Assembly: GCA_017521005.1 (NCBI GenBank)
Contig: JAFXEC010000052.1
Coordinates: 1 to 61,913 of the forward strand
Origin: Clostridia bacterium
GTDB lineage: Bacteria > Bacillota > Clostridia > TANB77 > CAG-465
DNA: 61,913 nucleotides
Reading direction: 5' to 3'
Below the pieces are notes generated by a model, which did no database searches, was not told the DNA's origin, and saw nothing but the letters and a program-made list of their open reading frames with translations. This document shows positions 14,707 through 45,485 of this stretch, piece by piece (the first letter of the stretch is position 1; each line of letters begins with the position of its first letter). A program made the position numbers and the translations under genes.

Positions 14707-15462
14707 ATGGAAGAACAGAGAATAAAAAATAAAAGCATAAAAGAAATATTTCTAAACATATTAATACTATTATTTATAATAATATTAATAATTTCTATTG
14801 GTTGTATTGCTAAGTGGTTTATGGATAACAAAGAAAACAAAGAGATATCAGATAAAGTGTCGGAGGCTATAATAGAAATTAACGAAAACAAAGACGAAGA
14901 AATAGAGTATAAAGTAGATTTTGTTAAGTTAAAAGAAATAAATAATCAAATAGTAGCATACTTAAAAGTAAATGGAACAAAAATAGAATATGCTGTAGTA
15001 CAAGCAAAAGATAATAGTTATTATTTAAGAAGAAACTTGGATAAAAAATATAATATTGGCGGTTCAATATTTATGGACTATAAAAATAAACTAGATGGAA
15101 CGGATAAAAACATTGTAATATATGGACATAATATGAAAAATGATTCAATGTTTGGAACATTAAAAAACATATTAAAAGAAGAATGGTATAACAATGAAGA
15201 AAATTATATAATAAATTTAACAACAGAAAAAGAAGAGAAAAAGTATAAAGTATTTTCAGTATATAAAATAAAGACGGAAGATTATTATATAGATACTGAG
15301 TTTAAAGAAAACGAATTTGAGAAATTTATAAATACACTAAAAGATAGAAGCATAAAAGATTTTGGAACAGAAATAGATGAACAAGATAACATATTAACAT
15401 TATCTACTTGTGCAGATAATAACGCATATAGGATAGTGTTACATGCAAAACAAATAGATTAG
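14707..15462 (+). CDS. srtB: Class B sortase
   Basis: N-terminal TM anchor, YGHNMKNDSMFGTL, LTLSTC catalytic Cys, YRIVLHA Arg. Confidence 0.85.
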   Translation: MEEQRIKNKSIKEIFLNILILLFIIILIISIGCIAKWFMDNKENKEISDKVSEAIIEINENKDEEIEYKVDFVKLKEINNQIVAYLKVNGTKIEYAVVQAKDNSYYLRRNLDKKYNIGGSIFMDYKNKLDGTDKNIVIYGHNMKNDSMFGTLKNILKEEWYNNEENYIINLTTEKEEKKYKVFSVYKIKTEDYYIDTEFKENEFEKFINTLKDRSIKDFGTEIDEQDNILTLSTCADNNAYRIVLHAKQID

Positions 15463-17469: not shown

Positions 17470-17599
17470 TAAGCTGTTTTTTATTGCTATTATATAAAAC
17501 ATTTGGTATAATATGGATGTGAATTTCTTGGGGGAAAATTCTAATATTATATGTGTGCACAAGATTTTTAGGGTTGCAAAATATAAAGGAGGAATTTTT

Positions 17600-18238
17600 A
17601 TGAAAGAAGAAATGAGCGAGTTTCTAAAAAATTTATATGCTTCAGGAGCAATAAGTAATTTGCATGAGGCTTTTGAAGAATTTCCTGTAGAGGAAGAATG
17701 GCATAAAGGTAATAGTGACAATTTTGTATGCGAAGAAAACGAAGAAGTTTATACTTCGTTTGAAGAAGGAGATATTGTATTCGTAAAAGAATATGAATAC
17801 GCTGATGGTAAAAAAGGATATAAACATCTTTTTGTAATAATTGAAAGAAATGTTATGGCTGTTCCTTTTGAAGTATTTACTATGTTGATATCTTCTAATT
17901 TAGAGAAATTGAAATTTGAAGCAAACAAATTATTGAAGAAGGATAGTTTAAACAAATTACACAAAGATAGTATTGTTAAAACAGATAAGATATATCAAAT
18001 TTTAATGAGCCAAATAGAAAAGAAAGTTGGAAGTGTAACGAAAGAAGCGTTAGAAGAATATAAGAAAAGCTTTGCACAAAGAAATAAAACATATGCTAAA
18101 TATTTAAAGGATAAAGAGGAACTTAAAAGAGAGATACAAAAAGGAATAGATTCTGCCAATAATGATAGATTATACACTGCGGATGAAGTATACAATGAAG
18201 CAAAAGAACTATTAGAAACAAATAACCTAAAAGAGTAA
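17600..18238 (+). CDS. Hypothetical protein with PemK/MazF-like SH3-barrel core and long helical C-terminal extension
   Basis: ATG at 17600 after AAGGAGG. GDIVFVKEYEY...HLFVIIERN, then LISSN and KDSIVKTDKIYQILMSQIEKKVGSV, resemble the MazF/PemK strand order. Weak, by-eye call. Confidence 0.35.
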   Translation: MKEEMSEFLKNLYASGAISNLHEAFEEFPVEEEWHKGNSDNFVCEENEEVYTSFEEGDIVFVKEYEYADGKKGYKHLFVIIERNVMAVPFEVFTMLISSNLEKLKFEANKLLKKDSLNKLHKDSIVKTDKIYQILMSQIEKKVGSVTKEALEEYKKSFAQRNKTYAKYLKDKEELKREIQKGIDSANNDRLYTADEVYNEAKELLETNNLKE

Positions 18239-18586: not shown

Positions 18587-19075
18587 CTAGTGGTGATAAG
18601 TTTCGCCTGAATTTATCTTAAACGCCCTAAATATCTGCTCTAGAAGGAATATTCTAATCATTTGATGAGGGAAAGTAAATTTCGAAAATGAAAGTAATAC
18701 ATTCGCATTTTTCTTAACAGGTTCACTTAACCCTAAACTTCCACCAATAACAAATGTAATAGTGGAGTTACCTTCAGTAGGAATCTTAGCTAATTTTTCA
18801 CTAAGTTCTACAGAAGTAAATTCTTTTCCATGTTCATCTAATACAAAATTAAATGAGTTGTTTATATTATTTAATTTTTGAAGTATTGCTTGTCCTTCTT
18901 TTTCTTTTACAATATTAATGTTGCTTTCATTAAGTGTAGTAGGGAGCTTTTCGTCTTTAAGACAGATTATTTCTAACTTGCAATATTTAGAAAGTCTTTT
19001 TACATATTCTGCTTCGTATTCTCTTAAATATTTTTCTTTAAGATCTCCTACACATATTATTTTAATATTTATCAT
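18587..19075 (-). CDS. rlmH: 23S rRNA (pseudouridine1915-N3)-methyltransferase
   Basis: About 160-aa SPOUT protein with the typical MINIKIICVG..KEKYL start and a GGSLG motif. Confidence 0.9.
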   Translation of the reverse strand: MINIKIICVGDLKEKYLREYEAEYVKRLSKYCKLEIICLKDEKLPTTLNESNINIVKEKEGQAILQKLNNINNSFNFVLDEHGKEFTSVELSEKLAKIPTEGNSTITFVIGGSLGLSEPVKKNANVLLSFSKFTFPHQMIRIFLLEQIFRAFKINSGETYHH

Positions 19076-19866
19076 AAAATGTACTCCTCGTATGAAACAT
19101 CCCTAGTAGCACAGTGGATGTTAAATTCATTTAGGTCAAAACCATTTTCTTTAAGAGTTTGGTTAACAGCAAATAATGCTTGTTCTGGCTCGTTATTGTT
19201 TTCACTAATATGACCTAAAAGAAAATTTCTTTTTCCTTCTTTGGCAAGGCATAGTATCGTATCTGATGTATCATCATTAGACAGGTGACCAATATCACTT
19301 TGTATTCTACATTTAAGTGGGTAAGAGTAAGGACCATACATAAGTAGGTTCCTATCATAGTTACACTCTAAAACCGTAAATGTTGAATCTGAAAGTTGCT
19401 TGTATACATCATCTGAAACATAACCCAAGTCTGTAGCTATTGTAAGTTTTGATTCTTCGTTTGCAAAAGTAAAGCCTAGAGGCTCTTTTGCGTCGTGCGA
19501 AATTCTAAATGGTGTAACTTTAATATCTTTAAGATAAAACTCGTTATTTTGGCTTACAGTAACAAATACAGGCTCTTTTTTTAGCTTGTCCTTATGTTTA
19601 TCTAAAAGATATGATTGGGTTCCATTAGATGTATATATTGGAATATCTGTTTTGTTAATTAAAGTGGCAACACCTTTTGTGTGATCTATGTGTTCGTGGG
19701 TAATAAATAATGCGTCAATTTCAGAAATGTTGATACCAAGGGTATCTAAAGATTCTGTAAGCGACTTAAAAGAAACCCCAATGTCTACTATTACAGTAGC
19801 CTTTGGGGATCTAATTAAATACATATTACCTGAACTGCCACTATATAATGGATATAGTTTTAGCAT
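19072..19866 (-). CDS. MBL-fold metallo-hydrolase (YycJ/WalJ-like)
   Basis: HEHIDH metal motif. Overlaps the rlmH start by 4 nt. Confidence 0.8.
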   Translation of the reverse strand: MLKLYPLYSGSSGNMYLIRSPKATVIVDIGVSFKSLTESLDTLGINISEIDALFITHEHIDHTKGVATLINKTDIPIYTSNGTQSYLLDKHKDKLKKEPVFVTVSQNNEFYLKDIKVTPFRISHDAKEPLGFTFANEESKLTIATDLGYVSDDVYKQLSDSTFTVLECNYDRNLLMYGPYSYPLKCRIQSDIGHLSNDDTSDTILCLAKEGKRNFLLGHISENNNEPEQALFAVNQTLKENGFDLNEFNIHCATRDVSYEEYIL

Positions 19867-19884
19867 AATACGCTCCGTTTCTTA

Positions 19885-21150
19885 TTAGTCGTTTGTAATT
19901 TCGTATTCAATATTAGCACCAAGTGCTTTGAATTTATCTACGATATTTTCGTAACCACGTTCGATGTGGTGTATGTCATATATTTCTGTTGCGCCATGAG
20001 CAGTAAGACCTGCAATTATCATAGCAGCGCCAGCTCTTAAGTCCATTGCTTTAACTGGAGAACCATAAAGTTCTTTTACACCAGTAAACATTGCTGTTCT
20101 ATCATGGTAAGAGATAGTAGCACCCATTTTAACAAGTTCTGCAGTATATTGGAAACGAGATTCCCAAATACTTTCAACTATCATTGAACTTCCAGTTGCA
20201 AGTGTTAAATATGTACCAAATTGAGGTTGCATATCTGTAGGGAAGCCTGGGTATGGTAGAGTTTTAATGTTAATAGCTTTTGGAGCTTTGTTCATTCTAA
20301 CTCTAATACTATCTTCGTATTCTATAACTTCAGCGCCAGATTCTTCTAGTTTAGCTGAAATAGGTTCCATATGTTTTGGAATACAGTTTTTAATTAAAAC
20401 ATCGCCTTTTGTAGCAGCGGCAGCAACCATAAATGTACCAGCTTCAATTTGGTCTGGTATGATTGCATAACTAGATGTTTGTTTTAAGCTTTTTACACCT
20501 GTAACTTTAATAACATCTGTACCAGCACCTTTAATGTTAGCACCAACAGAGTTTAAGAAGTTAGCTACGTCAACTATATGTGGTTCTTTAGCACAGTTTT
20601 CTATTGTAGTTGTTCCAGGAACTAGAGTAGCTGCAAGTATTGCATTAATTGTTCCACCAACTGTAACAACATCAAAAAAGATAGAAGAAGCTTCTAATTT
20701 TTTAGAAGTAGCATAAACATTTCCTCTTTTAACTTCAACTTCTGCACCTAAAGTTTCGAATGCTTTAATATGTTGATCTATTGGTCTTGCACCAATGTTA
20801 CATCCACCTGGTAAGCTTATTTGTGCGTTACCAAAACGGCTAAGTAAAGCTCCAAGTAGGTAGTATGATGCTCTAAATTTGCTTGTTAAATCATATGGAG
20901 CTACTGTTGTATGTATGTCTGTATTATCTATTATCATTTCATGTTCAGATAAGTATTCTATTTTAGAACCTAAGCTTTCTAATATTTTTACAAAAGCACG
21001 TATATCTGAAATGTTTGGTACATTCTCTAAATGACATTTGCCAGCAACTAGTAACGTAGCTGGAAGTATTGCAACTGCTGCATTTTTTGCACCAGAAATT
21101 GTAACTTCACCTTCAAGGCGACAAGGCCCATTAACTATAATTTTTTCCAC
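19885..21150 (-). CDS. murA: UDP-N-acetylglucosamine 1-carboxyvinyltransferase
   Basis: Full-length EPSP-synthase-fold protein, SGAKNAAV start region, active-site loop PGGCNIGARPIDQH. Confidence 0.95.
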   Translation of the reverse strand: MEKIIVNGPCRLEGEVTISGAKNAAVAILPATLLVAGKCHLENVPNISDIRAFVKILESLGSKIEYLSEHEMIIDNTDIHTTVAPYDLTSKFRASYYLLGALLSRFGNAQISLPGGCNIGARPIDQHIKAFETLGAEVEVKRGNVYATSKKLEASSIFFDVVTVGGTINAILAATLVPGTTTIENCAKEPHIVDVANFLNSVGANIKGAGTDVIKVTGVKSLKQTSSYAIIPDQIEAGTFMVAAAATKGDVLIKNCIPKHMEPISAKLEESGAEVIEYEDSIRVRMNKAPKAINIKTLPYPGFPTDMQPQFGTYLTLATGSSMIVESIWESRFQYTAELVKMGATISYHDRTAMFTGVKELYGSPVKAMDLRAGAAMIIAGLTAHGATEIYDIHHIERGYENIVDKFKALGANIEYEITND

Positions 21151-21514: not shown

Positions 21515-21647
21515 AATACACCCCATAAAAACAGTTCTTGTATATTTTATGTAAGAGTGTCTTGAATTGTTAGATGTTCAAAATAAATTTCTTTTCTTTT
21601 TTATATCTTTGTGATACAATTTGCAACAAGAGAGGGTATATGTATAT

Positions 21648-23201
21648 ATGAAAAACGAAGATTTAGTCACGATAATAGTTCCTGTATACAATAGAGAAAA
21701 ATATATAAAAGAAACACTACAAAGTATTCTTAATCAAACATATACAAACTACGAGGTAATATTTGTAGATGATGCATCTACAGATGCTAGTATTAGTATA
21801 CTTGAAGAATACACAAAGAATAATGCTAAGTTCACACTAATTAAGCTTAGGAGAAATATGGGCGTCTCTTTTGCAAGAAATATTGGTATAAGAAAAGCAA
21901 GTGGACGTTATATTGCTTTTTTAGATTCAGATGATTTATGGCTTCCACATAGACTTGAAGAACAGATAAAATTCGCTAAAGAAAATAACTATGCTTTTAC
22001 ATATTCTGCGTTTAAGTATATTACAGATGATGGAAGCAAGATAAGCAAAAAGATAGAAGTCCCATTTGAGTTGGACTATGATACCGCGCTTCTAAATACT
22101 AGAATTCTAACAATAACAGCATTAATAGATTTACAAAAGATTCCTAAGTATTTGTGTTATATGCCCCGTTTCAAACATGAAGATATGGCTACTTGGTGGA
22201 AAATATTAAAAAATGGATACAGTGCTTATGGCTTAAATAAAACGCTTGCATATTGTAGAATAACAGAAAAATCAAGAAGTGGAAATAAGATTAAAAGTGC
22301 ATATTTTAGATGGAAGTTATATAGAAAGATGGAGAAACTAAACATCTTTAAGAGTATATATTGCTTTATGCATTATGTGTTTAATGCTGTGAAAAAACGT
22401 GGAGGAAAATACAGTGTTAGAAAAGATAATACGTTATCTGTAGCATTGTCTACAATGCATCTAAAAAACGATGAAGATGTAAATAACATTATTAATAAAA
22501 TGAAGATTACATCAGATTATTTAATAGTAAATCAAACGGATAAAGATAATATAAATATATCTAATGAAAATGTAGTTACAAGGTTCGAGAGAGGATTAAG
22601 TAAAAGTAGAAATACTGCATTAGATAGTTGTAAATCAGATGTAATTCTTTTTGCTGATGATGATGTTAAATATTTAGACAACTATTCTGAGATAGTATTA
22701 GATGCCTATTTAGAACATCCTAAAGCGGATATGATTTGCTTTTATGTAGAAAGTACAAATAACAAAAGAAAAACAAAGAGAATTAGAACAGGTAAGCTTG
22801 GATATATAAACGCTATGAAAATAATATCTGCAGAGATGAGTATAAAAAAAGCATCATTTGAGAGAGCTAAAATTAGATTTGACGAAGATTTTGGCATAGG
22901 GGCACCTAACAATAGGGGTGAAGAACAAATATTAATTTATGAGGCTTTAAGAAAGAATCTTAATGTAATATTTGTTAATAAAAAGATTGCAGATATTGAT
23001 CAAACAGAAAGTACATGGTTAAAAGATTACGATGAAAATTATTTCTATATACAGGGCAAGGTATATAAAAGATTAACAAAGAAGTGGTATTTGTTTTGGA
23101 TATTACAATATGTAATTAGAAAATATCCAATGTATAAAAAGAGTGTAAGTTTTAGACTTGCATTAAAAAATATGTTAAAAGGAGCAAAGGAGTATAAATA
23201 G
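21648..23201 (+). CDS. Two-domain family 2 glycosyltransferase
   Basis: ATG at 21648. First GT2 domain: IIVPVYN, VDDAS, LDSDD. Second GT-A-like domain with FADDDV. Confidence 0.85.
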   Translation: MKNEDLVTIIVPVYNREKYIKETLQSILNQTYTNYEVIFVDDASTDASISILEEYTKNNAKFTLIKLRRNMGVSFARNIGIRKASGRYIAFLDSDDLWLPHRLEEQIKFAKENNYAFTYSAFKYITDDGSKISKKIEVPFELDYDTALLNTRILTITALIDLQKIPKYLCYMPRFKHEDMATWWKILKNGYSAYGLNKTLAYCRITEKSRSGNKIKSAYFRWKLYRKMEKLNIFKSIYCFMHYVFNAVKKRGGKYSVRKDNTLSVALSTMHLKNDEDVNNIINKMKITSDYLIVNQTDKDNINISNENVVTRFERGLSKSRNTALDSCKSDVILFADDDVKYLDNYSEIVLDAYLEHPKADMICFYVESTNNKRKTKRIRTGKLGYINAMKIISAEMSIKKASFERAKIRFDEDFGIGAPNNRGEEQILIYEALRKNLNVIFVNKKIADIDQTESTWLKDYDENYFYIQGKVYKRLTKKWYLFWILQYVIRKYPMYKKSVSFRLALKNMLKGAKEYK

Positions 23202-24595
23202 TGGAAAAGGCTAGATTACTTAAAAGAGTAAATTCGTATTTTATATCTAATACATTAACAAAAGTTTTTTCCTTTTGTTTAGTGATTCTTTATGCCTTTT
23301 ACATATCTCCAGATAACTTTGGAGATTATGAATATGTTCAATCTTTAATAAATATAGTTGTCCCATTTTCTTTCTTAAGTATATGGGAAGCAATATTAAA
23401 GTTTGGATTAGATGAAAAAGTAAATAAGCAAAAAGTAATTGGTACAAGCGCAATATTTACATTAGGTATGGCTGTTATACTTACTATAGTATGCATAACA
23501 TATTTTTGTTTTAATAATTCTGGTATTTTAATACCAACCTTTGTAACTTTAACATTCGTGATAGATGGTATTAGAATAATGTGGCAACATTATCTAAAGA
23601 TACTTAACAAATATGATGTGTATGTTAAATCTAGCGTAATTGGAAATGTAGTAAGTATAGCTTCAGTGGTTATTATGGTTGTATGCTTTAGATTACAACT
23701 TGTTGCTTTGTTTGTTTCTAGCTTACTTGGAACAATTACAAGTATATGTATAATAGAGTTTAAGGAACATATTTTAGCGTATATTAAGAAAAACAATATA
23801 GATTTATCTATGTTAAATAACATGATTAAATATTCTATGCCGCTTGTTATAGCTGCTATTTTAACATGGGGAATAACTGGACTTAGTAAGTTTGTTATAC
23901 AAAATTATATAAGTGATGAAGCAAATGGAATATATTCTTTTGCACATAAATTTACAATAATTATAACATTTATATCTACGATATTAGGTGCGGCAATAGC
24001 AGAAGAAATGTTAACTTTTTCAAAAGATAAATTCAATAAAGAGTTTGCTAATGTAACAAATAAACTTACAAATGGTTATATAACTTTAGGAATAATTGCG
24101 ATGCCGTTAATAATGATAGTGTATAAAATAATAGAGAAAACAAAGTATTATGAGTCTAAGAAATATGTACCATTACTTATTTTGTATTTTATATTTTTAA
24201 CACTTGTAAATCATATTTCTATCGTATTTAAGAAATATAGCAAGAATAAATATAGCCTACTTGCAACATTAATTGGAGTAGTAGTTACAATAATGGTAAT
24301 GTTTTTAAGTATTAGAAGAGTTGGGGTATTAGGAGTAGTTTTAGCACAATTTTCAGGAGCATTAACAATGTTAATAACTAGCTTAATATTTGCAAGAAAA
24401 TACGTTAAAGTAAGGATAAATAATGTTAAAACAGTATTGCTGTTGTTAGCATATATATTGTTTAGTACAGCTACATTAATGGTAAATTGGTATCTATCAA
24501 TAGCATTATTCCTATTTACAATTTTTGTGTTTAAGGATAATATATTAGATATATTTAAAGAGTATAAAGGAAGAAAAAATGAAGAAAGTATATAA
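23201..24595 (+). CDS. Wzx-type oligosaccharide flippase (MOP superfamily)
   Basis: About 12-14 TM helices. GTG start overlaps the GT2 stop. Typical position in a glycan locus. Confidence 0.75.
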   Translation: MEKARLLKRVNSYFISNTLTKVFSFCLVILYAFYISPDNFGDYEYVQSLINIVVPFSFLSIWEAILKFGLDEKVNKQKVIGTSAIFTLGMAVILTIVCITYFCFNNSGILIPTFVTLTFVIDGIRIMWQHYLKILNKYDVYVKSSVIGNVVSIASVVIMVVCFRLQLVALFVSSLLGTITSICIIEFKEHILAYIKKNNIDLSMLNNMIKYSMPLVIAAILTWGITGLSKFVIQNYISDEANGIYSFAHKFTIIITFISTILGAAIAEEMLTFSKDKFNKEFANVTNKLTNGYITLGIIAMPLIMIVYKIIEKTKYYESKKYVPLLILYFIFLTLVNHISIVFKKYSKNKYSLLATLIGVVVTIMVMFLSIRRVGVLGVVLAQFSGALTMLITSLIFARKYVKVRINNVKTVLLLLAYILFSTATLMVNWYLSIALFLFTIFVFKDNILDIFKEYKGRKNEESI

Positions 24596-25202
24596 AGTAA
24601 TAAAGAGGGTACTAGATATATTAATATCTTTAATTGGAATAATATTGTTATTACCAATATTTCTTTTGATAGCACTTGTAATAAAATTAGATTCTAAAGG
24701 AAAAGTTTTTTATTTACAAGAACGTATAAAGAAGGATGGTAAAAAGTTTAACATAATTAAATTTAGAACAATGGTACATGATGCAGATAAAAGACTAGAA
24801 GAATTTTCTAAAGAACAATTAGAAGAATACAAGATAAATTACAAACTTAATAACGATCCAAGAATAACTAAAGTTGGGAAGTTTTTAAGAAAAAGTGGAT
24901 TAGATGAACTCCCACAACTAGTAAATGTATTAAAAGGGGATTTATCTTTAATAGGGCCAAGGCCGGTTGTTTTAGATGAAGTTGAAAGATATAAAGAAAA
25001 TAAGGATGAGGTACTTAGTGTAAGACCAGGTATAACTGGATATTGGTGTGCGTTTTCTGATGAAAATACAACATATGAAGAACGTATGAAAATGGAATTA
25101 TATTATGTAGAAAACATTTCATTAGGATTAGATATAAAAATAGTTTTTAGGACTATATCTGTAATCTTTTTAAGAATTATAAATAAGAGAAAAGTTAATT
25201 AA
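24579..25202 (+). CDS. Undecaprenyl-phosphate sugar phosphotransferase (bacterial sugar transferase family, priming enzyme)
   Basis: Single N-terminal TM helix, KFRTM, DELPQLVNVLKGDLSLIGPRP. Confidence 0.9.
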   Translation: MKKVYKVIKRVLDILISLIGIILLLPIFLLIALVIKLDSKGKVFYLQERIKKDGKKFNIIKFRTMVHDADKRLEEFSKEQLEEYKINYKLNNDPRITKVGKFLRKSGLDELPQLVNVLKGDLSLIGPRPVVLDEVERYKENKDEVLSVRPGITGYWCAFSDENTTYEERMKMELYYVENISLGLDIKIVFRTISVIFLRIINKRKVN

Positions 25203-25261: not shown

Positions 25262-26497
25262 ATGAAAAAGAGACAAGGTATATCATTAATAGTGTTGGTT
25301 ATAACAATAATTGTTATGATAATACTAGCATCTGCGGTAGTAGTAACACTTAGTAATGCTAATATTATAGATAGAGCAGGTGATGCAGTAGATAAAACTA
25401 ATATAAAACAAGTAGAGCAAATAGCTTCGATTGCGTGGTCGGAAGCGTTTTTGGAAAAATATAGAGGAGCAGATTTAAGAGATAAGGTTTATGAAACACT
25501 AAGAGAAGGCGGTGTAAATCCTTATGATTATAATATTACAGTTACAGATAAAGGTGTAACGGTAATAGATAAGGAAAAAGCAGGAACATTACTTGTAGGA
25601 CCATGGGAACTAAAAATTACTAAAACTTCAGGAAAGGTTACTAAAGCTGTTGTAACAAACGGCGTGGTAGAACTAAATGTAGGTGCTACTATAGATTATA
25701 TGCCTGGCGGAGTTGGAGATACAAATTATGTTGCTGGGTGGAAGATTTTAGGCGCTGATTCAAGTGGTAGATTACTTATATTGTCGAATGAAGGTGTTAC
25801 AGCGGAAAAAGTTGAACTATATATAAGAGATGGTTGGGTAAATGCTGAGACAATTCTTGATGGAGCGGCAGCAACTTATGCAGATGGCGTTATGGGTATT
25901 AATTCTAGAAGTATAAAAGTAGAAGATATAGATGCTTTAACTGGATATGATAAAACAACATTTAATGTTGGATTAATAAATGAATACAATACAACTGTAA
26001 CGATAGAATGGGATGGATCAGACTATCCTAAATATACAAATGGTAGCGTAACTGGTAATTTCAGTCGTTCGCATAAAGATAGCGGCTTTAGATATTATGA
26101 TATGGCAACCTCTTCATGGAAGACATCATATTTTACAACAACACCTACTGAAATAACTAAAATAACAAACGATTATTATGGTTATGTTGGAGCGGATTAT
26201 ATGGATACAACATTGCCTGCGTATAATATGATATTCCAAAGCAGGTCAGCGCCGTATAATACGGTTGAAACATATTGGCTAAATTCTAAGTTTATAAATG
26301 TATGTACAGATCATGTTAGATTTGGTATTAGAAGTTTAAGAAATGGTGAAGTTTTTGATGATGATGTGTATATTTCATGGCACTATGGGAACTCACCAGA
26401 TTATGAAGTAAGAGCAGTAGTTACACTAGCGGATAATGTAATATTAAGTGAAAGCCAAAAGAATCCGGGAACATATAATATATATGTCAATAATTAA
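25262..26497 (+). CDS. Pilin-like-handle protein A (unknown beta-rich C-terminal domain)
   Basis: N terminus MKKRQG-ISLIVLVITIIVMIILASAVVVTLSN, shared with ORFs at 29029, 30980 and 42803. RBS AAGGAGG. Confidence 0.7.
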   Translation: MKKRQGISLIVLVITIIVMIILASAVVVTLSNANIIDRAGDAVDKTNIKQVEQIASIAWSEAFLEKYRGADLRDKVYETLREGGVNPYDYNITVTDKGVTVIDKEKAGTLLVGPWELKITKTSGKVTKAVVTNGVVELNVGATIDYMPGGVGDTNYVAGWKILGADSSGRLLILSNEGVTAEKVELYIRDGWVNAETILDGAAATYADGVMGINSRSIKVEDIDALTGYDKTTFNVGLINEYNTTVTIEWDGSDYPKYTNGSVTGNFSRSHKDSGFRYYDMATSSWKTSYFTTTPTEITKITNDYYGYVGADYMDTTLPAYNMIFQSRSAPYNTVETYWLNSKFINVCTDHVRFGIRSLRNGEVFDDDVYISWHYGNSPDYEVRAVVTLADNVILSESQKNPGTYNIYVNN

Positions 26498-26629
26498 ATA
26501 TTAAGAATAAAAAGGATGATGATAAATAATGATGTGAACCTTTGTTAGGAGACATTAAATAATTCATGATCCTTTTTTTATTAAATAATATAGTATATAA
26601 TAATGAAAGAAATGAGAGGGAAAACATAT

Positions 26630-28984
26630 ATGTTAAAGAATGTGGTAAACAAAGGGTTAGAATATATATCTATATTAATTCTTCTAATATCGTTTCTTTT
26701 AGTGGGAACACCGCTTAAAGAAAATACACTGGTGTTTAGTATGTTTATAATAGGCATAGGAATAATATTTGGAATATATAAAACAATAAAAAAAGATAGG
26801 CTATTTACAAACAAAATAGATATATTTGTTTTGTTATTTTATTTAACTCCATTAATACCGATTTTGTTTAATTCATATGCCAATTTAGAAGATACATTAA
26901 TAGCATTAACAAAAAACATAGCGCTATTTAATATATATTTAATGTTGAAAGAGAGATTAAGTGTTGATGATGGTGGAAAAGAAAAGATAATAAATGTGTT
27001 GCTAATAGGACTTTTAATATTATCTTTCTTTGGCTTTGATGAAATGTTAGGTAGAACCGTATATAGATATATGAAGCATATTGGAATACCTAATGTAGTA
27101 AATTATGAAGCAAGGATGTTTTCGTTGTTATGCTATGCAAATACATTTGCGGTTATTATGGCAATAGGGATGTTTTTAGTTTTATATAAATTAAATAAGA
27201 TTAGTAATATAGATAATAACAACAATAAAAAGGTAAATAAGAAAGAAATAATGTGGTACATATATGCTGGGATAATGTATGTATTTGTATTATCTTTAAT
27301 TATGACATACTCAAGAAGCGTCTGGATTATTACAGCTTTAGTGTTTGGCATATGTTTTTTGTTTAATAAGGATAGAGTATATAATGTGTGTGTGTTGTTG
27401 ATAAACGTTATATTATCTTTAATAGGAATAAAATTCTTAAACTTGTTTATAACAGAAAAATTATACATATTTGCATGGCTTAATATAATAGGTTTTGCGG
27501 GAGTTAGCGCGATTGCAACGAATCTTCTTAACAAGATAAAAAATAAATTGGTAAATATAAAATTAACAACATGTATATGTTTAATGGTTGGTCTTGTAGT
27601 AGTTATCCTTTTAGCATATATAGTTGGACTAAAATTAATAACACCACTTAATATATTTGCAGATGGTAAAAGTAGCGAAGAAGTAAGATATAAGTTATAT
27701 AACATACAGCCTAATACGGATTATACATTTTCTTTAGATATAGACGCAAAAACATTAAGGAATATGGATGGAATATATACTGTAGAAATAACTGAAGAAA
27801 ATAAATATTATGATACTATAGCTACACATAACATAGCCTTTAGTACATTTAAAGGGAACAAAGAAATTAAGTTTAAGACAAAAGATAGTACGGTAGCTAT
27901 GGTAATATTCTTTAAGAGCAATAATAAATATTTACAAGATGGTTTGAGAATAAATAGTGTAAATATAAATGGAAAAACAAAAGGATTAAGTTATGCATAT
28001 TTACCAATAAATTTAGTAGAAAAAATAGAAAGTTTCACATTAAACAATAAAAGTTTGTGGGAGAGATTTGTATACCATAAAGATGCATTAAAGATAATAA
28101 AAAGTAGTCCTTTAACAGGTAATGGAGCAAATGGTTGGAAATATAATTATGCTAACGTACAAGAATATATGTACGGTGCATCAGAACCTCATAGTCACAT
28201 ATTACAATTAATAATAGATAATGGTATAACTTCAGGAATACTTTTAATAACTCTTATAGGTTATGTAGTATTTGTAATTGCTAAGAAAAAACATTTTAAT
28301 TTATTAGATGCGGCGTTTATATTACTTAATATACATTCAATAGTAGATTTTAATATGTCTTTCTTTGTAGTAAATGTTGTTTGGATAATAATGTTTGGTT
28401 TAATAATTTGTAACACCGAAGAAAATGAAAAGAAAATCAAAACAACAAATTTAACAAACAAATTAAATCTAGTTATAAATATATCTTGTACAGTAATAAG
28501 TGTTTTGGTTATATTACTAGGCATAAGTACATATGCACTAATAGATGAAAAAGATGAAATAGTGGATATAAGTAATGAGTATATTAAACAAGAAAAATAT
28601 AATGAGGCTTTAGTAAAAATAAGTGAGTTAGAAGATGATGGCAAATACAGAGGATGTATTTATGATGTAATATATAATTTGGATTATGCAAAATTAAATA
28701 GTAAAAGTTTAGAATATATATATAACATCATTTCAAAAGAGAAGCTAACTGTAAATACAGAGTTCACTATGATGTTAAATAGAATTGTAGACAATATATT
28801 AAAGAATATAGAAAATGATGAGTACATAAATAAATTTGCAAAGTATATAGTTAATAATAATGAAAAGGTTGTTTTATGTATAAAAAATAAAGATGCAAAT
28901 AGAATGGAAGAAATGTACATTAATATGCTTCTTGAAGAACAAAAAAATATGTATGAATATTCAAAAAATGTATTGCCAAAATAA
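26630..28984 (+). CDS. Wzy_C / O-antigen-ligase-family polytopic membrane protein with inserted extracytoplasmic domain and C-terminal helical extension
   Basis: ORF 26603..28984; ATG at 26630 after GAGAGGG, alternatives at 26603 and 26612. More than 10 TM helices. TYSRSVW and EPHSHILQLIIDNGI resemble the conserved Arg and His motifs of WaaL/PglL-type enzymes. Confidence 0.65.
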   Translation: MLKNVVNKGLEYISILILLISFLLVGTPLKENTLVFSMFIIGIGIIFGIYKTIKKDRLFTNKIDIFVLLFYLTPLIPILFNSYANLEDTLIALTKNIALFNIYLMLKERLSVDDGGKEKIINVLLIGLLILSFFGFDEMLGRTVYRYMKHIGIPNVVNYEARMFSLLCYANTFAVIMAIGMFLVLYKLNKISNIDNNNNKKVNKKEIMWYIYAGIMYVFVLSLIMTYSRSVWIITALVFGICFLFNKDRVYNVCVLLINVILSLIGIKFLNLFITEKLYIFAWLNIIGFAGVSAIATNLLNKIKNKLVNIKLTTCICLMVGLVVVILLAYIVGLKLITPLNIFADGKSSEEVRYKLYNIQPNTDYTFSLDIDAKTLRNMDGIYTVEITEENKYYDTIATHNIAFSTFKGNKEIKFKTKDSTVAMVIFFKSNNKYLQDGLRINSVNINGKTKGLSYAYLPINLVEKIESFTLNNKSLWERFVYHKDALKIIKSSPLTGNGANGWKYNYANVQEYMYGASEPHSHILQLIIDNGITSGILLITLIGYVVFVIAKKKHFNLLDAAFILLNIHSIVDFNMSFFVVNVVWIIMFGLIICNTEENEKKIKTTNLTNKLNLVINISCTVISVLVILLGISTYALIDEKDEIVDISNEYIKQEKYNEALVKISELEDDGKYRGCIYDVIYNLDYAKLNSKSLEYIYNIISKEKLTVNTEFTMMLNRIVDNILKNIENDEYINKFAKYIVNNNEKVVLCIKNKDANRMEEMYINMLLEEQKNMYEYSKNVLPK

Positions 28985-29028
28985 AAAATATATTATAACA
29001 TTTTGTATATAAATATGGAGGAAAACGA

Positions 29029-30861
29029 ATGAAAAATAACAAAAAAGGTATATCGTTAATAGTATTAGTAATTACAATAATAGTTATGATAATATTGGCA
29101 GCAAGTGTTGTAATAACGTTAAGTAATACTGGAATAATAGGAAAGGCATCGGAGGCAACAACGATGACAGATTTGAAATCGTTACAACAAGAAGCAGATG
29201 TTGTAAAAGCGTTAGAGTTAGGAAATATATACACTGGCTCTGATAGAAATTTAAGATTAACTAAAGCACTGTTACTAGAAAGACTACATCAACATTTTAA
29301 AGGCAGTACTAAAAATGGAGATAGAATAATAACAGCAGATGGAAAATATGTAATTATAGTTGGAGATGACTTATCTATAACCATAGGTGTTAATGAACCA
29401 GGCAAGAAAAACGAGTTAACACTAGCTATAACATATAATTCGCCAGTTACATCTATACCATATAAAGTATATGTTACACCAACACTTGAGGGATGGAAAA
29501 GAGAAGATGCAGCAACAGGTGAAACATATTCAAGTTATGAAGAATATGCAGAAGCGATTTTAGCAACTGTAAAATCCGAATCAGAACTTGAACAATTATT
29601 TGTAGAAGGAAACAATTATTGGAATGCGGAGTATGGTGGTATGGAACCAATGTATCAAAACATAAATCAATTGGTTGCAACATGGAGTTTAATCTATGAT
29701 AGTGGCGCTTATACTACTTTGGATGGTATGATTGAACATTATGGTTTTGAAAGCTTGGGAGATTTAGCTTTGTCTTTAGAGTTGATTAAACCAGAAGGGT
29801 ATTACGGAAAAGGTTATATAGAATTTGCTGAAAATGAATTAAAAAATACTACAAAAACATATGAAGAAATATATATGGAAGGTCGTATATATTTAGCAGA
29901 GACAGAAGAATGGGGTAATTTAACAGACCTTAAGAACGCTAGTACTTTTGCAGAGTTTGTAGAAAGTGACATGGGAATTCCAAACATAAATAATATGGAT
30001 CAACTTCTTGCAGACTATAAGGCGGCTTATCAAGCAAATTATATGACAAAAGAGAATTTATTAATAGTAATGAAAGCGGTTGAACCTAAAAAGTATAGTG
30101 ATATATCAGAATTGCAAGATGGAGAAGTTTTAGTCAAAGGTCCAAGTGGAAAAACTGTAATAGCTATGTCTGGAGAAACGGTTGAAATTACTATGATAAG
30201 TGTAAACGAAACTACATTTGAAGCGGTTGCGTTTAACGGAAAAACAACTAAAAAGACATTTAACCCTGAATCAAATATTGCACCACAAAATTATACAGCG
30301 CTAGATACAAAATTCTTTGAGTTTGAATATGATTCAACAACAATGACAGCGACATTAAAGAAGATAAAAGATTCATATCAAGAAGTTGGATATTACGAGC
30401 ATATTAGCTTGCCAGCACCATATACATATCCTAAATCTATAATAGATGATAATGGAACAAAAATTACAGATATAATAATACCGTCAAAAGTGGTAAATCC
30501 AGCAGATAATAAAGAATATACTATAACAGCAATAGCAAGCTACGCATTTTCAGTGCCATCTAACGTAACAGGAAGCACACAACCAAGCTTTACAAGTTTA
30601 ATATTACCTGAAACAATAACAACAATAGGAGATTATGCATTCTTCTGTTGGAATAAAGCTACTAAATTGGTATTACCAAAGAGTTTAACTACAGTAGGAT
30701 ATCAAACATTTAGTTATTGGAATGAATTAGACGTAATAAGTTATTCAGGAACACAAGCACAATATTCGAATATATTATTTGAGCCTCAATGGTCACTTGA
30801 AGGAAAAGAATTTGAACAAAAATTAGTAATATGCGATACTATATATTCAATAGCAGATTAG
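29029..30861 (+). CDS. Pilin-like-handle protein B with C-terminal BspA-type leucine-rich repeats
   Basis: N terminus MKNNKKG-ISLIVLVITIIVMIILAASVVITLSNTGII. C terminus has ITAIASYAF, ITTIGDYAFFC and LTTVGYQTF repeats. Confidence 0.75.
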   Translation: MKNNKKGISLIVLVITIIVMIILAASVVITLSNTGIIGKASEATTMTDLKSLQQEADVVKALELGNIYTGSDRNLRLTKALLLERLHQHFKGSTKNGDRIITADGKYVIIVGDDLSITIGVNEPGKKNELTLAITYNSPVTSIPYKVYVTPTLEGWKREDAATGETYSSYEEYAEAILATVKSESELEQLFVEGNNYWNAEYGGMEPMYQNINQLVATWSLIYDSGAYTTLDGMIEHYGFESLGDLALSLELIKPEGYYGKGYIEFAENELKNTTKTYEEIYMEGRIYLAETEEWGNLTDLKNASTFAEFVESDMGIPNINNMDQLLADYKAAYQANYMTKENLLIVMKAVEPKKYSDISELQDGEVLVKGPSGKTVIAMSGETVEITMISVNETTFEAVAFNGKTTKKTFNPESNIAPQNYTALDTKFFEFEYDSTTMTATLKKIKDSYQEVGYYEHISLPAPYTYPKSIIDDNGTKITDIIIPSKVVNPADNKEYTITAIASYAFSVPSNVTGSTQPSFTSLILPETITTIGDYAFFCWNKATKLVLPKSLTTVGYQTFSYWNELDVISYSGTQAQYSNILFEPQWSLEGKEFEQKLVICDTIYSIAD

Positions 30862-30876
30862 AATAAAATATAGAAT

Positions 30877-30911
30877 AGGATATAACAGCGAATGTTATAT
30901 CCTAATTTTTT
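30877..30911 (+). terminator. Rho-independent terminator
   Basis: ggatataac-agcgaat-gttatatcc followed by taatttttt. Confidence 0.7.
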
Positions 30912-30979
30912 ATATAAATATTGAAAAAATAAAAAATATATTATAGTATATATTTATAAAAATATAAGGGGGAAAACAA

Positions 30980-31912
30980 ATGAAAAGAAAACAAGGTATA
31001 TCGCTAATAGTACTAGTAATAACAATTATAGTAATGATAATATTAGCAGCTTCAGTAGTGATTACTTTAAGTAATACAGGAATAATAAATAAAGCAAATG
31101 AAGCAACAGACACAACTAATTTACAACAAGTACAACAATTAGCTACTTTAACATGGTCTGATGGATTTTTGGATAATTTAAGAGGAGACGACTTAAGAGA
31201 CTATGTATTAGGTGAAATGGGAGATTATACAAATGATTATGATATAGATGTATCAGACAAAGGTGTAGAAGTAAATAAAAAAGGTGAAGGACCAATCGAA
31301 CCATTTGACTATTATACATATGATTATGATACGACAAATATGACGGCAGCATTAAAAGGTGTGCAAGAGAAGTATGCGGTAACAGGATACTATAATTATA
31401 GAACAGATAAATATCCTTATACAACAGCAATAAAGGATGATGAAGGAAATACTGTAACAAGAGTTGCAATTCCATCAACAGTAACTGGACCTGATGGTGA
31501 GACATATACAGTAACTTCAATAAAAGCGGGAGCGTTTTCATCTAGTACAGCAGGTTCGCTAAACCCAGCGCTTGATGATCAATCACAATTTACAGAAATA
31601 GTATTACCGGATACATTGGTAACAATTGACAATAATGCATTTGCCTTATGTGTAAATATAAAAGAAATAGTAATACCAGAAGGTGTTACAAATATAAATT
31701 ATGGTGCGTTTATGGTATGTAAATCATTAAAGAAGATAGTATTGCCGAAAACATTTACAACACTTGGTCTGTGGGTATTTGGATATGCAGACAATTTAAC
31801 AGATGTATATTATGCTGGTACAGAAACAGAATGGTCAAATCTATCATTAGATGAAATGGGTAATGAGCCCCTTACAAATGCAACTATGCATTATAACTAT
31901 GTAGCAGAATAA
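30980..31912 (+). CDS. Pilin-like-handle protein C with C-terminal BspA-type leucine-rich repeats
   Basis: N terminus MKRKQG-ISLIVLVITIIVMIILAASVVITLSNTGII. C terminus has VTSIKAGAF, LVTIDNNAFALC and VTNINYGAFMVC repeats. Confidence 0.75.
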   Translation: MKRKQGISLIVLVITIIVMIILAASVVITLSNTGIINKANEATDTTNLQQVQQLATLTWSDGFLDNLRGDDLRDYVLGEMGDYTNDYDIDVSDKGVEVNKKGEGPIEPFDYYTYDYDTTNMTAALKGVQEKYAVTGYYNYRTDKYPYTTAIKDDEGNTVTRVAIPSTVTGPDGETYTVTSIKAGAFSSSTAGSLNPALDDQSQFTEIVLPDTLVTIDNNAFALCVNIKEIVIPEGVTNINYGAFMVCKSLKKIVLPKTFTTLGLWVFGYADNLTDVYYAGTETEWSNLSLDEMGNEPLTNATMHYNYVAE

Positions 31913-33655: not shown

Positions 33656-34279
33656 ATGACAGAAAAAGAACAACTTAGATTAGATAAAATGTTAGAGTAC
33701 GAAAGAGCGTTATATGCTAAAGGATATGAATTTGTATGCGGAATAGATGAAGCTGGACGTGGACCACTTTGTGGACCAGTTGTAGCAGCTGCAGTTATTC
33801 TTAAAAAAGATGATCATATTGAAGGTGTAAATGATTCTAAGAAACTTTCAGAAAAGAAAAGAGAACAATTATTTGAAACTATAAAAGAAAGAGCAGTGGC
33901 TTGGTCTGTTGGTATAGTAGATGAAGAAACAATAGATAATATAAATATTCTTGAAGCAACAAGACTAGCTATGAAAAAAGCAGTAGAAGGATTAAAACAA
34001 AAACCAGACTATGCATTAGTAGATGCAGAAAAGAAAGTGCCAATAGATGTGCCATATTCACCAATAATAAAAGGTGATGCGTTAAGTGAAACTATTGCAG
34101 CAGCGTCTATTATAGCTAAGGTTACAAGAGATCATATGATAATTGAATTAGACAAAGAATATCCAGAGTATGGTTTTGCAAAAAACAAAGGATATGGCAC
34201 AAAAGAACATACAGAAGCAATTAAAAAATATGGACTTTGCAAAGCACATAGAAAGAGCTTTTGTAAAAAGTTTATCTAG
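33656..34279 (+). CDS. rnhB: Ribonuclease HII
   Basis: GIDEAGRGPLCGPVVAAAV and DSKKLS motifs. Confidence 0.95.
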   Translation: MTEKEQLRLDKMLEYERALYAKGYEFVCGIDEAGRGPLCGPVVAAAVILKKDDHIEGVNDSKKLSEKKREQLFETIKERAVAWSVGIVDEETIDNINILEATRLAMKKAVEGLKQKPDYALVDAEKKVPIDVPYSPIIKGDALSETIAAASIIAKVTRDHMIIELDKEYPEYGFAKNKGYGTKEHTEAIKKYGLCKAHRKSFCKKFI

Positions 34280-42760: not shown

Positions 42761-42802
42761 GTGATTAAATAAAATAAGTAATTGTATACAAAGGAGAAGT
42801 AT

Positions 42803-44233
42803 ATGGTAAAAAACAAAAAAGGTATATCATTAATAGTATTAGTAATAACAATAATAGTTATGATAATTTTAGCAGCCGCGGTTGTTGTTACATTAAACAA
42901 CAGCGGAATAATAGGTAGAGCAAGCGAGGCGGTAGATGATACGGAATTAAATGATGTTAGACATTTAGCAACTTTAGCGTGGTCTGAAGCATATTTGGAA
43001 GGTCTAGATTTAGAGGATGCTGTATTTGAAGCGCTAGAAAATAATAATGTTAATACGGATAAATACGATATAATCGTTACAGATAAAGGGGTAACTGTAA
43101 ACAAGAAAGATGAGAACGCCGAGAAAGGAACTGTTCCACCAGCAGATTGGCAAGATAGTGTAAGAATTGTAACTGAAGAGGGTGTTCCTATTCCAAAAGG
43201 TTTTGCACGCTCTCCATACGCAACTGAAGATCAAGTGGCAGAAGGAATGGTTATATATGCTTTAACAGAAGATGAAATAAAAGCTGGTAAGAAGACAATT
43301 ACTACTGATGCTAGCCATCAATATTCTTTAGAGAATAGAAATCAATTTGTATGGGTACCAGTAGATAGAGATGCTTTTGTAACAGAATTTGTGAGAAAGA
43401 ATTTTGCTGGTACTAATGTAAATATTTCTAATGAATTAGGCAAGGGATATTGGGAAATAGTGCTAGACGAAAATAATATGCCTGCAGCCCAAAACATGCA
43501 AAATAGCGCGTATATATCAGATATGGTGTATGAAGAAATAACTGCGATGTATGAAAGTGTTAAAAAATATGGAGGTTTCTATATAGGTCGTTATGAGGCA
43601 GGAACAGACACATATGATGAAGTTACATTTTTGTCTAATGGAAGTGCAAAAGTTGCAATGGGTAAATATCCTATAACTAATATAGATTGGGGTAATGGCA
43701 CTATGGCAGATGATAATGGTGGTGCTGTAGCAAAATCTAGAGAGTTATATCCAAAGAGTAATTCATTATATGGAGCAGTTTCTACTTTAACATATGGTGT
43801 GCAATGGGATGCTGCAATATCTAGTTGGGTAAAATTAGAACCAACATTTGATTTCTTTGATCCAAGTAAAGGTATATGGTGGGATACTATTATAACAGCG
43901 TCAGATTTTAATACTAACGCAAAGCAATCAAGAATAGACACAGATGAATGGGCACTAAGAGTTTGGACAGCTGCTGAACCAAGAGTAGCAGATGATGATC
44001 CACAATTATTTAGTACTGGTGCATGTAAAAATTCTATTAATTATAACGTTTATGATATGGGAGGTAATTTGTTTGAATGGACAATGGAAGGAACTTCAAC
44101 ATATCAACGTTCTGTAAGAGGTAGTTATTGGTGGCATTACGTAATGTATGGTGGGGTAAATGATAGAGACGGTGAATCAATGGGACCAGACCCAGTATAT
44201 TTAGGATTTAGACCATCGTTATATATTAAGTAA
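42803..44233 (+). CDS. Pilin-like-handle protein D with C-terminal FGE-sulfatase (SUMF1/DUF323, C-type-lectin fold) domain
   Basis: ATG at 42803 after AAGGAG. N terminus MVKNKKG-ISLIVLVITIIVMIILAAAVVVTLNNSGII. C terminus has YGVQWDAA, YDMGGNLFEWTMEG, RSVRGSYWW and LGFRPSLY. Confidence 0.7.
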   Translation: MVKNKKGISLIVLVITIIVMIILAAAVVVTLNNSGIIGRASEAVDDTELNDVRHLATLAWSEAYLEGLDLEDAVFEALENNNVNTDKYDIIVTDKGVTVNKKDENAEKGTVPPADWQDSVRIVTEEGVPIPKGFARSPYATEDQVAEGMVIYALTEDEIKAGKKTITTDASHQYSLENRNQFVWVPVDRDAFVTEFVRKNFAGTNVNISNELGKGYWEIVLDENNMPAAQNMQNSAYISDMVYEEITAMYESVKKYGGFYIGRYEAGTDTYDEVTFLSNGSAKVAMGKYPITNIDWGNGTMADDNGGAVAKSRELYPKSNSLYGAVSTLTYGVQWDAAISSWVKLEPTFDFFDPSKGIWWDTIITASDFNTNAKQSRIDTDEWALRVWTAAEPRVADDDPQLFSTGACKNSINYNVYDMGGNLFEWTMEGTSTYQRSVRGSYWWHYVMYGGVNDRDGESMGPDPVYLGFRPSLYIK

Positions 44234-44336: not shown

Positions 44337-45485
44337 ATGGCAAAGCAACAAAAACAAATGGTGTATTTTAATGCTGTAAGACAAATTGAAACAATAACAA
44401 TTAAATATAACGACAAATTAGACGGAGATTTTGTCGATGATGTTTGTACATATATAAAAGAGGTTTCAAAAAAGATGCCAAGAGTGGATCTTAAGAACCC
44501 AAGAGAGGTGTATACAGTAACTGTTTTTGTATACCCTAGTGTTAAGATGTTCAATCAAATATTTAATGGTGTAATTGAAAAAAGATATTACCAAAGAAGA
44601 CGTTCTTTACAAGATCTTTATGTTGTAAGAGATGAAGGTGGAAATATTCATATAGCTTCTCCTAGAGGTCGTGGTACAGAACAAGCAGAAGCATTTAAGA
44701 GAATACTTGTTATGAATGTTCTTGGCGAATACATGAATGAACAAGATAAACAAACAGCAGATAGAATGTTAAGAGCTTCTATGGTTAAAAAGAAAGAAGA
44801 ACAAGAAATAGAAGAGGTAGAAGAACCTATTGAAGAGGAAGAAATTGAACCTGAAGTAGTTGAAGAGGAAGAAGTTTCTGAAGAAGAAATGGATGAACTT
44901 ATTATGCTAGAAGATGAGATAGCGGATATTGATGCTGAAGAAGGTACTTTAGATGCAGATGTTGAAGATGAAGAAGTACACGAGGTTTCGGAAGACGATA
45001 TGGTTCCTGGAAGTGTAGTTCAAGCAAGACAATGGTTAAGTTTAGGCTGGATGGGATATCTAAGTGGTAGATTAAATGGCGAAAAAGAAGTAAGATATTT
45101 TGCAGAACATATTTCGGCTAATGGTGTAAAGAAATTAGGTAAATTAAAAGATACCGGCTGGTATGAAAGATATAACTATTCTCAAGAGTATTCAATCGCT
45201 ATAGTAGAATACATTGTTTCTACATATGGTGTAAGAACATTCAAAAAATTCTATGAAGATCCAACAGATTATGAACATACATTAGGTATAAGTAAAAGGG
45301 CATTTGAGGCTAGAGTAAAAGCATACATATATGGTAAGTATGGTCCAAATAGAATGAAAGAAGAAGTAGAAGAAAAAGCAGATGAAGATTTAAGCGTTAC
45401 GGAAGTTAGAATAGATAGAAACGGTGGAGCAACAATTACTGAACTACAAATAGAACAAGAACCACCAGTTTTAGAAATAGTATAA
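44337..45485 (+). CDS. Hypothetical protein with a roughly 75-aa poly-acidic insert
   Basis: RBS GGAGGT. The central E/D-rich stretch (EEQEIEEVEEPIEEEEIEPEVVEEEEVSEEE...) splits two globular halves. Confidence 0.45.
   Translation: MAKQQKQMVYFNAVRQIETITIKYNDKLDGDFVDDVCTYIKEVSKKMPRVDLKNPREVYTVTVFVYPSVKMFNQIFNGVIEKRYYQRRRSLQDLYVVRDEGGNIHIASPRGRGTEQAEAFKRILVMNVLGEYMNEQDKQTADRMLRASMVKKKEEQEIEEVEEPIEEEEIEPEVVEEEEVSEEEMDELIMLEDEIADIDAEEGTLDADVEDEEVHEVSEDDMVPGSVVQARQWLSLGWMGYLSGRLNGEKEVRYFAEHISANGVKKLGKLKDTGWYERYNYSQEYSIAIVEYIVSTYGVRTFKKFYEDPTDYEHTLGISKRAFEARVKAYIYGKYGPNRMKEEVEEKADEDLSVTEVRIDRNGGATITELQIEQEPPVLEIV

Follow-up and report, generated by a model that had tools for sequence, protein, structure and literature searches.

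Bulky modular pilins have a precedent in the type IV pili (T4P) of monoderm bacteria, namely the pilins PilB and PilC of Streptococcus sanguinis (PMC8179133, PMC10191384). Each consists of a small N-terminal pilin module and a module that is not pilus-specific (vWA in PilB, a lectin in PilC; PMC8179133). These pilins have a canonical signal (Gly-1, Glu5, IPR012902) and an active PilD, and they are found in the pil locus, two per genome (PMC8179133). Here we describe four open reading frames (ORFs) in a 61,913-nucleotide contig of a Clostridia bacterium (JAFXEC010000052.1, assembly GCA_017521005.1; hereafter the window), which probably encode modular type IV pilins, each a pilin module with a grafted, interchangeable surface module (leucine-rich repeat (LRR), FGE-sulfatase-like or other). 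As in S. sanguinis, the host is a monoderm, the machine is of the type IVa pilus (T4aP) kind with PilMNO-type proteins and PilT, and we propose that the filament displays adhesive domains. Unlike the S. sanguinis pilins, the window proteins have Ile at +1 and Val at +5 and no N_methyl match, their genes are dispersed, with at least 23-29 per relative genome, and the PilD homologue lacks the peptidase domain.

Bacterial pilins almost invariably carry Glu5, and Glu5 mutants do not homopolymerise (PMC4471445; PMC10191384). Prepilin peptidases combine a methylase N-terminal domain with a peptidase C-terminal domain that bears two universally conserved Asp residues (PMC4471445, PMC10191384). Glu5 is missing from the tip minor pilins GspK and PilK, which, like the window proteins, carry a bulky extra domain on a pilin scaffold (PMC10191384, PMC8179133). 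In those systems, where such pilins cap the priming complex, Glu5 is missing from a single subunit and present in the major pilin, whereas here both the candidate major pilin and all modular pilins lack it; missing Glu5 therefore does not mark a tip subunit, and no sequence similarity of the window proteins to GspK was found. Glu5 is also commonly absent from archaeal class III proteins, including the sugar-binding proteins of the Sulfolobus bindosome, where functional, non-structural proteins with a pilin-type signal use a type IV filament machine to reach the surface (PMC4471445). Bindosome proteins are archaeal, processed by PibD/FlaK and served by Bas or archaellum-type machinery, in contrast to a Clostridia host with a bacterial T4aP-like PilB/PilT/PilC.

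A shared N-terminal handle

The window is low in G+C (~29%), with nearly all genes on the plus strand. The initial annotation had noted that four ORFs (A to D, starting at 25262, 29029, 30980 and 42803) begin with one common handle, and a frame scan bears this out: each plus-strand ORF starts with a basic leader of five to six residues, a Gly and 17 identical residues, ISLIVLVITIIVMIILA. A six-frame scan of the window found no fifth copy. In all four, the leader ends in Gly and is followed by ~21 hydrophobic residues, with Ile at +1 and Val at +5, so that Phe1 and Glu5 are indeed missing as annotated. The handle was also said to be conserved at the DNA level, and the DNA pattern given for it has four matches in the window (up to two mismatches) against none in 100 shuffles. 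Over 18 codons, the four copies differ at 13 of the 54 nucleotide sites, always synonymously, indicating that conservation acts at the protein level. Across the family, Ser codons of the TCN as well as the AGY type are used. Since every nucleotide difference is synonymous, a recent duplication or gene conversion can be ruled out as the source of the identity. A Shine-Dalgarno site lies 6-8 nt upstream of each of the four ATGs, which for D favours a start at 42803 over the TTG at 42782.

ORFs A, C and D have ~70 further residues in common (previously put at ~60), ending as described in a Y(D/N)I.V(T/S)DKGV.V hairpin, and B departs from them after about residue 55. We refer to this shared part as the N-module.

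Homology to type IV pilins

Profile comparison (hhalign) of the window N-module with the short pilins encoded in T4P clusters of sister lineages gave a match of 98.8% probability (E 5.6e-17, 92 columns), and one of these cluster pilins passes the gathering score of Pfam N_methyl (22.1 vs 21.2 bits). Over the 16 positions that follow the Gly, the window handle (ISLIVLVITIIVMI-I) is identical to the short candidate major pilin. Because the profile match coincides with the presence of the handle on a cluster pilin, we take the handle to be the class III signal and alpha1N, in diverged form, of a T4aP-type system. The class III architecture pointed out in the initial annotation thus stands, and its idea of mere mimicry does not: as judged from these alignments, its signal and alpha1 stem are genuinely those of a type IV pilin, in derived form, and homologous to those of other pilins.

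The predicted structure is consistent with this. For residues 1-106 of C (91 aligned homologues), AlphaFold2 (AF2) gave an unbroken helix from residue 9 to 64, together with a short helix and a hairpin at 87-100, at a mean pLDDT of 81. For full-length C, it gave helices at 9-32 and 35-64 and the same hairpin, followed by a beta/LRR part (mean pLDDT 86.6). The predicted N-module thus includes an alpha1 helix of the length expected of pilins (~50 residues). The small pilin module would comprise a class III-type signal, an alpha1 helix of ~56 residues, a short helix and a beta-hairpin. A profile search of PDB sequences was swamped by LRR proteins when the full alignment was used. With the N-module alone, Geobacter PilA, the MshA pilin and an archaeal flagellin came out on top, aligned in register at the Gly (E 0.5-0.9), with the hydrophobic tract of the handle in register with FTLIELLIVVAIIGILAA of Geobacter PilA and MshA.

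A pilus-assembly cluster in related genomes

As annotated, the window has no PilB/PilC/PilD-type genes: Pfam found no such domain in a scan of ~44 window ORFs with 150 aa or more (the translations of four further ORFs, at 33656, 38012, 39871 and 3450, were read or gave no match). Such genes were found in close relatives. A block of the metagenome-assembled genome (MAG) JAZTYX01 (L043), retrieved solely for its handle pattern, encodes in order a PilN-like protein, a PilO-like protein, a small transmembrane protein, a 124 aa pilin, an A24_N_bact protein, a 144 aa minor-pilin-like protein, PilB, PilT and PilC, directly followed by another handle gene. The 124 aa pilin starts MKKG-ISLIVLVITIIVMIII, i.e. 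MKKG-ISLIVLVITIIVMIIIAGAIIISLNSTN... PilB matches T2SSE (E 6e-94), with type IV-A PilB as its best NCBIfam match, PilT is a retraction ATPase, and PilC is a T2SSF protein.

With a 25-residue peptide of PilB as the query, the same cluster turned up in 12 genomes, including JAZOWO01, JAZSJJ01, JAZRSA01 and JAFXHJ01, and wherever the retrieved block reaches that far, the major-pilin position is occupied by a pilin of 119-141 aa with the same handle (MKKG-ISLIVLVITIIVMII). The assembly ATPase, the platform protein and the PilMNO-type proteins co-occur in close relatives (L043, L198, L201-L203), and none of them is in the window. Loci of the first three of the named MAGs (not JAFXHJ01) are 83-94% identical to the window at the nucleotide level (89-94% in the longest segments), making them its closest available relatives, and each of the four carries at least 12-23 handle genes. 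The window organism's own genome presumably has the pilus cluster as well.

The gene order is shared by more distant relatives (among them Clostridium sp. CAG:921 and a closed MAG of 1.8 Mb, OZ006973.1), which have 1-5 tandem short pilins that start G-ITL(V/I)ALVITIIVLLILAG. We also observed tandem arrays of 2-5 near-identical short pilins (~145-157 aa) that start G-ITLVALVVTIIVLLILAG and lie upstream of the PilD-like gene (Table 1); these may be a set of alternative major pilins. In two blocks (L113 2983-4074 and L114 2986-4080), a gene lying ~2 kb upstream of the T4P cluster encodes a variant of the handle, KKG-ISLVLLTVILIIMSILAF, in a product of 363 aa, showing that the handle is not invariant in every lineage. 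The PilB proteins of the clade (L043, L113-L129, L193-L324) have APTGEGKTT(T/S) as their Walker A motif instead of the usual GPTGSGKSTT, which makes a handy clade marker; since the clade has APTGEGKTT, a search of 820 kb of relatives for the strict motif GPTGSGKST found no pilus gene.

Size and distribution of the family

Searching protein sequences with C gave 1013 matches, nearly all with a variable basic leader, then GISLIVLVITIIVMIILA, then varied C-terminal parts. The leader spans 3-24 residues and the Gly is invariant (>200 homologues). Among 1.84 billion representatives of clusters at 50% identity, a profile built on the N-terminal ~105 residues matched 282 clusters at E <=1e-30, 1909 at <=1e-10 and 21,746 at <=1e-3, and the handle is nearly invariant among representatives of such clusters. 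In species-representative genomes, a degenerate DNA pattern of the handle matched at least 110 blocks; among the matches listed, all are in MAGs of uncultured 'Clostridia bacterium' from human, sheep and chicken guts. As lower bounds, CAKPEI01 has at least 29 handle genes, JAZOWO01 at least 23 and JAZSJJ01 at least 17; JAQUBQ01 is likewise rich in handle genes. Around these loci (at least 110), the neighbours are housekeeping genes, with no recurrent partner gene. Sporulation genes nearby (SpoVA and CotF neighbours) indicate that the host is a spore-forming monoderm.

A search of the literature for the handle sequence strings gave no match. The initial annotation went further and knew of no functional description of such a system, which does not hold, as modular pilins have been defined and surveyed across bacteria (Raynaud et al. 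2021, PMC8179133). That survey was keyed on IPR012902 (PMC8179133); the window proteins do not match N_methyl, the Pfam counterpart of this entry, and proteins of their type were therefore probably missed.

Absence of Glu5 and a PilD homologue without a peptidase motif

The unusual signal extends to the operon pilins of the clade, which have Ile1 and Val5 or Ala5. In a scan for APTGEGKTT covering at least 120 further species genomes, 89 of 90 nearby pilin-type N-termini have Ile at +1, and the +5 residue is Ala in 79, Val in eight and acidic in two. This Ile1 plus Ala/Val5 variant spans more than 130 species.

The gene at the PilD position keeps an A24_N_bact domain with a four-Cys zinc finger (E 1e-27 to 1e-30), and takes two forms. 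In sister lineages it encodes a full-length polytopic PilD homologue (hhalign 99.9% over 236 columns), for which Pfam matches A24_N_bact only. The C-terminal domain is recognisably that of PilD but degenerate: conservation is lost around GxGD, the second catalytic motif, and two of ten proteins have another residue in place of the first Asp (Ser in L118, Phe in L124); from its sequence, this protein is probably a pseudo-peptidase. In the window's lineage, the peptidase domain is gone altogether, and the methylase domain is followed by one transmembrane helix, a charged Lys/Glu-rich linker and an in-frame pilin-like segment (for example KKG-ALSSEIIVAVGVF). This fusion has 335 database relatives; the best 120 of the 335 match PF06750 only, keep the four Cys, have Asp or Glu at +5 and contain no GxGDxK. 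The fused segment is the only Glu5/Asp5 pilin seen in the window's lineage.

Compared with a canonical bimodular PilD (IPR010627 methylase plus IPR000045 peptidase), these proteins thus keep A24_N_bact and the four Cys, and GxGD is absent from every clade member examined (found in 0 of 120 proteins and 0 of 71 further loci). The 71 are those blocks of the APTGEGKTT scan with a PilD N-domain, where 59 encode the polytopic protein without GxGD and 12 the fusion. As a control, a hydrophobic ORF with GxGD(K/R) was found in 28 of 63 PilB loci of other clades, but in none of the 29 clade loci or the 112 handle blocks. Peptidase_A24 was also not found in the flanks of one pilus cluster. These A24 negatives cover 8 kb blocks around matches rather than whole genomes, and a separate A24 enzyme elsewhere in these genomes is possible. 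The name 'prepilin peptidase', which the fusion protein bears in public records, appears functionally wrong.

Perhaps, then, this clade of gut Clostridia (>130 species-level genomes) runs a T4aP-type pilus whose pilins start Gly-Ile-(Thr/Ser)-Leu and have no Glu5, with a catalytically dead PilD and without a canonical prepilin peptidase. We put this forward tentatively, and on balance doubt that all of it will hold. If no other A24 peptidase exists, the pilins would be assembled uncleaved or cleaved by an enzyme of another kind.

Table 1. Coordinates of the putative modular pilins and their handles in the window, and of pilus-related features in retrieved blocks (L numbers) and proteins (P numbers) of relatives.
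Feature	Location	Strand	Length	Remarks
Putative modular pilin A	25262-26497	+	411 aa	Leader MKKRQ, Gly6, handle, N-module to ~residue 100, then a ~310 aa module without family match
Putative modular pilin B	29029-30861	+	610 aa	Handle and first ~55 residues common, middle divergent, C-terminal BspA-type LRR_5
Putative modular pilin C	30980-31912	+	310 aa	Handle, N-module, LRR_5 module
Putative modular pilin D	42803-44233	+	476 aa	Handle, N-module, FGE-sulfatase-like module (weak match)
Handle of A	25277-25351	+		Gly(-1) and 24-residue hydrophobic tract ISLIVLVITIIVMIILASAVVVTL; corresponds to class III signal cleavage-site position and alpha1N
Handle of B	29047-29121	+		From pattern, frame and codon comparison
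Handle of C	30995-31069	+		From pattern, frame and codon comparison; AF2 of residues 1-106 gives one helix over 9-64
Handle of D	42821-42895	+		From pattern, frame and codon comparison
Polytopic PilD homologue	L118-L129 (e.g. L126 8176-8985); 59 blocks of L205-L324			
Methylase-pilin fusion	L043 2296-3123; L198 31-858; L203 3408-4235; L113-L117; P0230-P0349	- (L203)		
Tandem pilin arrays	L123 5213-7803; L129 6686-8103; L119 6998-7962			

Weighing the explanations

If the four ORFs are modular pilins, they would insert N-in/C-out via the handle, with the leader in the cytoplasm. The PilB/PilC machine, recognising in them the alpha1N that the major pilin also has, would then pull them from the membrane, and they would be built into pili or prime them. 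In this way, the modules would come to lie outside the thick monoderm wall and act there as adhesins or effectors. Leader cleavage, polymerisation, a position at the tip or along the shaft, and adhesive function are the steps that we infer. That each subunit has to suit a single filament core and a single machine would explain why the handle is invariant across dozens of paralogues.

Several observations weigh against this interpretation. The N-terminal methylation motif was searched for with Pfam PF07963 and the NCBIfam library. Pfam N_methyl does not match any of the four window proteins at E values up to 1, so the check that the initial annotation proposed came out negative. NCBIfam has no methylation-motif match either, its only pilin-related match being GspG (E 0.099), and the PDB sequence matches to pilins (E 0.5-0.9) are not significant. 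The head of the N-module is predicted as a short helix and a two-strand hairpin instead of the usual four-strand beta-meander, and a Foldseek search of its model against the PDB returned no pilin, only insignificant winged-helix-like matches (best E 0.8). Glu5 is absent from the window proteins, and classical pilins mutated at Glu5 fail to homopolymerise (PMC4471445). The only homologue seen of PilD, the enzyme that would cleave the leader, is without a peptidase domain; PilB/PilC/PilD-type domains are missing from the window, and the modular genes are dispersed outside the pilus operon. The window proteins count as members of the pilin family by stem anatomy, profile homology and machinery context, and not by Glu5 or N_methyl.

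Part of this would also fit pilin-derived membrane anchors that do not polymerise and that only tether their modules to the membrane's outer face or a short stub, with placement perhaps requiring the T4P machine as in the bindosome. Such anchors would need neither Glu5 nor the active prepilin peptidase that we fail to see, nor would dozens of bulky paralogues per genome, which are hard to pack in a filament, or their dispersal away from the pilus operon pose a problem. The bindosome provides a precedent of functional class III signal proteins without Glu5 (PMC4471445). However, a plain anchor needs no invariance of Ile, Val and Leu over 17 positions in paralogues less than 50% identical, and the handle is that of a short pilin inside a T4P operon. 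A membrane-tethered stem of ~8 nm would also presumably leave the modules buried in the Gram-positive wall. We consider such anchors, the main alternative, unlikely.

The initial annotation had contrasted its pilin-like family with ordinary uncleaved signal anchors, to be recognised by a lack of processing and assembly genes. The assembly genes are present in relatives (PilB/PilT/PilC), and for processing there is the PilD homologue without a peptidase motif. Ordinary Sec signal anchors, alike through recent duplication or gene conversion and pilin-like by coincidence, would fit the lack of any Pfam or NCBIfam pilin model at threshold on the window proteins and the lack of pilus genes in the window. 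They seem very improbable given the 13 synonymous differences among 54 handle nucleotides and the use of both Ser codon families, the spread of the family over many MAGs (282 clusters at E <1e-30 and 1909 at E <1e-10), the 98.8% profile homology to operon-encoded pilins and the presence of the same handle on a pilin within T4P clusters. BspA-type LRR proteins occur in some gut phages, and one family member has a PT-HINT toxin domain, so one could also imagine surface or receptor-binding proteins of phages or mobile elements that spread this N-terminus horizontally. That idea is hardly credible, as a tblastn search with the N-module found no match in 50,697 phage records, the degenerate handle pattern has no match in IMG/VR, and the neighbours are housekeeping genes.

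C-terminal modules and neighbouring genes

The proposal of a common handle carrying interchangeable domains is supported, with LRR_5, FGE-sulfatase-like and unmatched modules on one stem. Of the module assignments in the initial annotation, the LRR is clear: Pfam matched LRR_5 in B (E 4.7e-9, residues 520-597) and in C (E 2.6e-17). The FGE-sulfatase fold of D is a weak match below the cut-off (PF03781, E 0.008), although PF03781 is present in close homologues of D (P0079, P0084, P0101); its C-terminal module has no PDB sequence relative. The module of A has no Pfam family match, and residues 106-411 have no PDB sequence relative. Among 113 family members scanned, 18 have LRR_5, three DUF285, two DUF6273 and one a PT-HINT pretoxin domain, and most match no Pfam family. 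The PT-HINT protein (alignment A5, among P0121-P0229) also matches Hint_2 and intein-splicing models (E 1.5e-20). As these domains are typical of polymorphic toxin precursors, they hint that some modular pilins may deliver toxins.

Between A and B, within the interval 25262-31912, lies a gene unrelated to the handle family (26603-28984), which encodes a 793 aa Wzy_C-like membrane protein resembling O-antigen ligases. It is syntenic in L108 and L014, and L041 has one that is 25% identical. Together with the genes at 21621-25202, it places a GT2 glycosyltransferase, a Wzx-type flippase, a Bac_transf initiating sugar transferase and a Wzy_C protein around A, B and C. Such a gene set constitutes an en bloc O-glycosylation route, as used on pilins by PilO/TfpO and PglL. 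The genes could serve pilin O-glycosylation or, equally, belong to a capsule locus at 9-2133.

Other routes to the surface are also encoded in the window. A 1480 aa protein (55627-60069) has three stretches of LRR_5 along with a subtilase S8 domain and carries a type I dockerin at its C-terminus, so the same type of LRR module would also be displayed via a cohesin-dockerin route; its gene is directly followed by one for a cadherin-like beta-sandwich protein (60073-61119). Two sortase-domain proteins (2137-3459, 14707-15462) indicate that sortase-based surface anchoring exists beside the pilin-based family, and there is a Cthe_2159 carbohydrate-binding protein (11213-12658). Directly 3' of D, the gene at 44337-45485 encodes a 382 aa protein with a long Glu-rich acidic stretch and no Pfam match. 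A PemK/MazF-like toxin domain is present in a 241 aa protein (17513-18238). Its gene lies beside the window's only minus-strand block (18587-21150; a SPOUT methyltransferase, a metallo-beta-lactamase fold protein and a member of the EPSP synthase family), which coincides with a local loss of GC skew at 18-22 kb.

Implications

Judging from the sequences, several features of this system appear to be new: the non-canonical signal, a candidate major pilin without Glu5, a PilD that is degenerate or truncated, a methylase domain fused to a Glu5 pilin, and an expansion to dozens of dispersed modular pilins per genome. The family has been hidden, yet it comprises ~1,900 clusters at 50% identity from one lineage, compared with ~1,200 modular pilins counted earlier across all bacteria. 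If the clade does run a pilus of this kind, then in the window's lineage it would also serve as a general scaffold on which each genome displays dozens of modular proteins. The finding suggests how uncultured gut Clostridia with small genomes may display BspA-type LRR adhesins beyond the Gram-positive wall, and so bears on attachment to the host and the community. The clade would also be a natural test case for the role of Glu5, and for whether PilD, with its leader cleavage and N-methylation, is indispensable.

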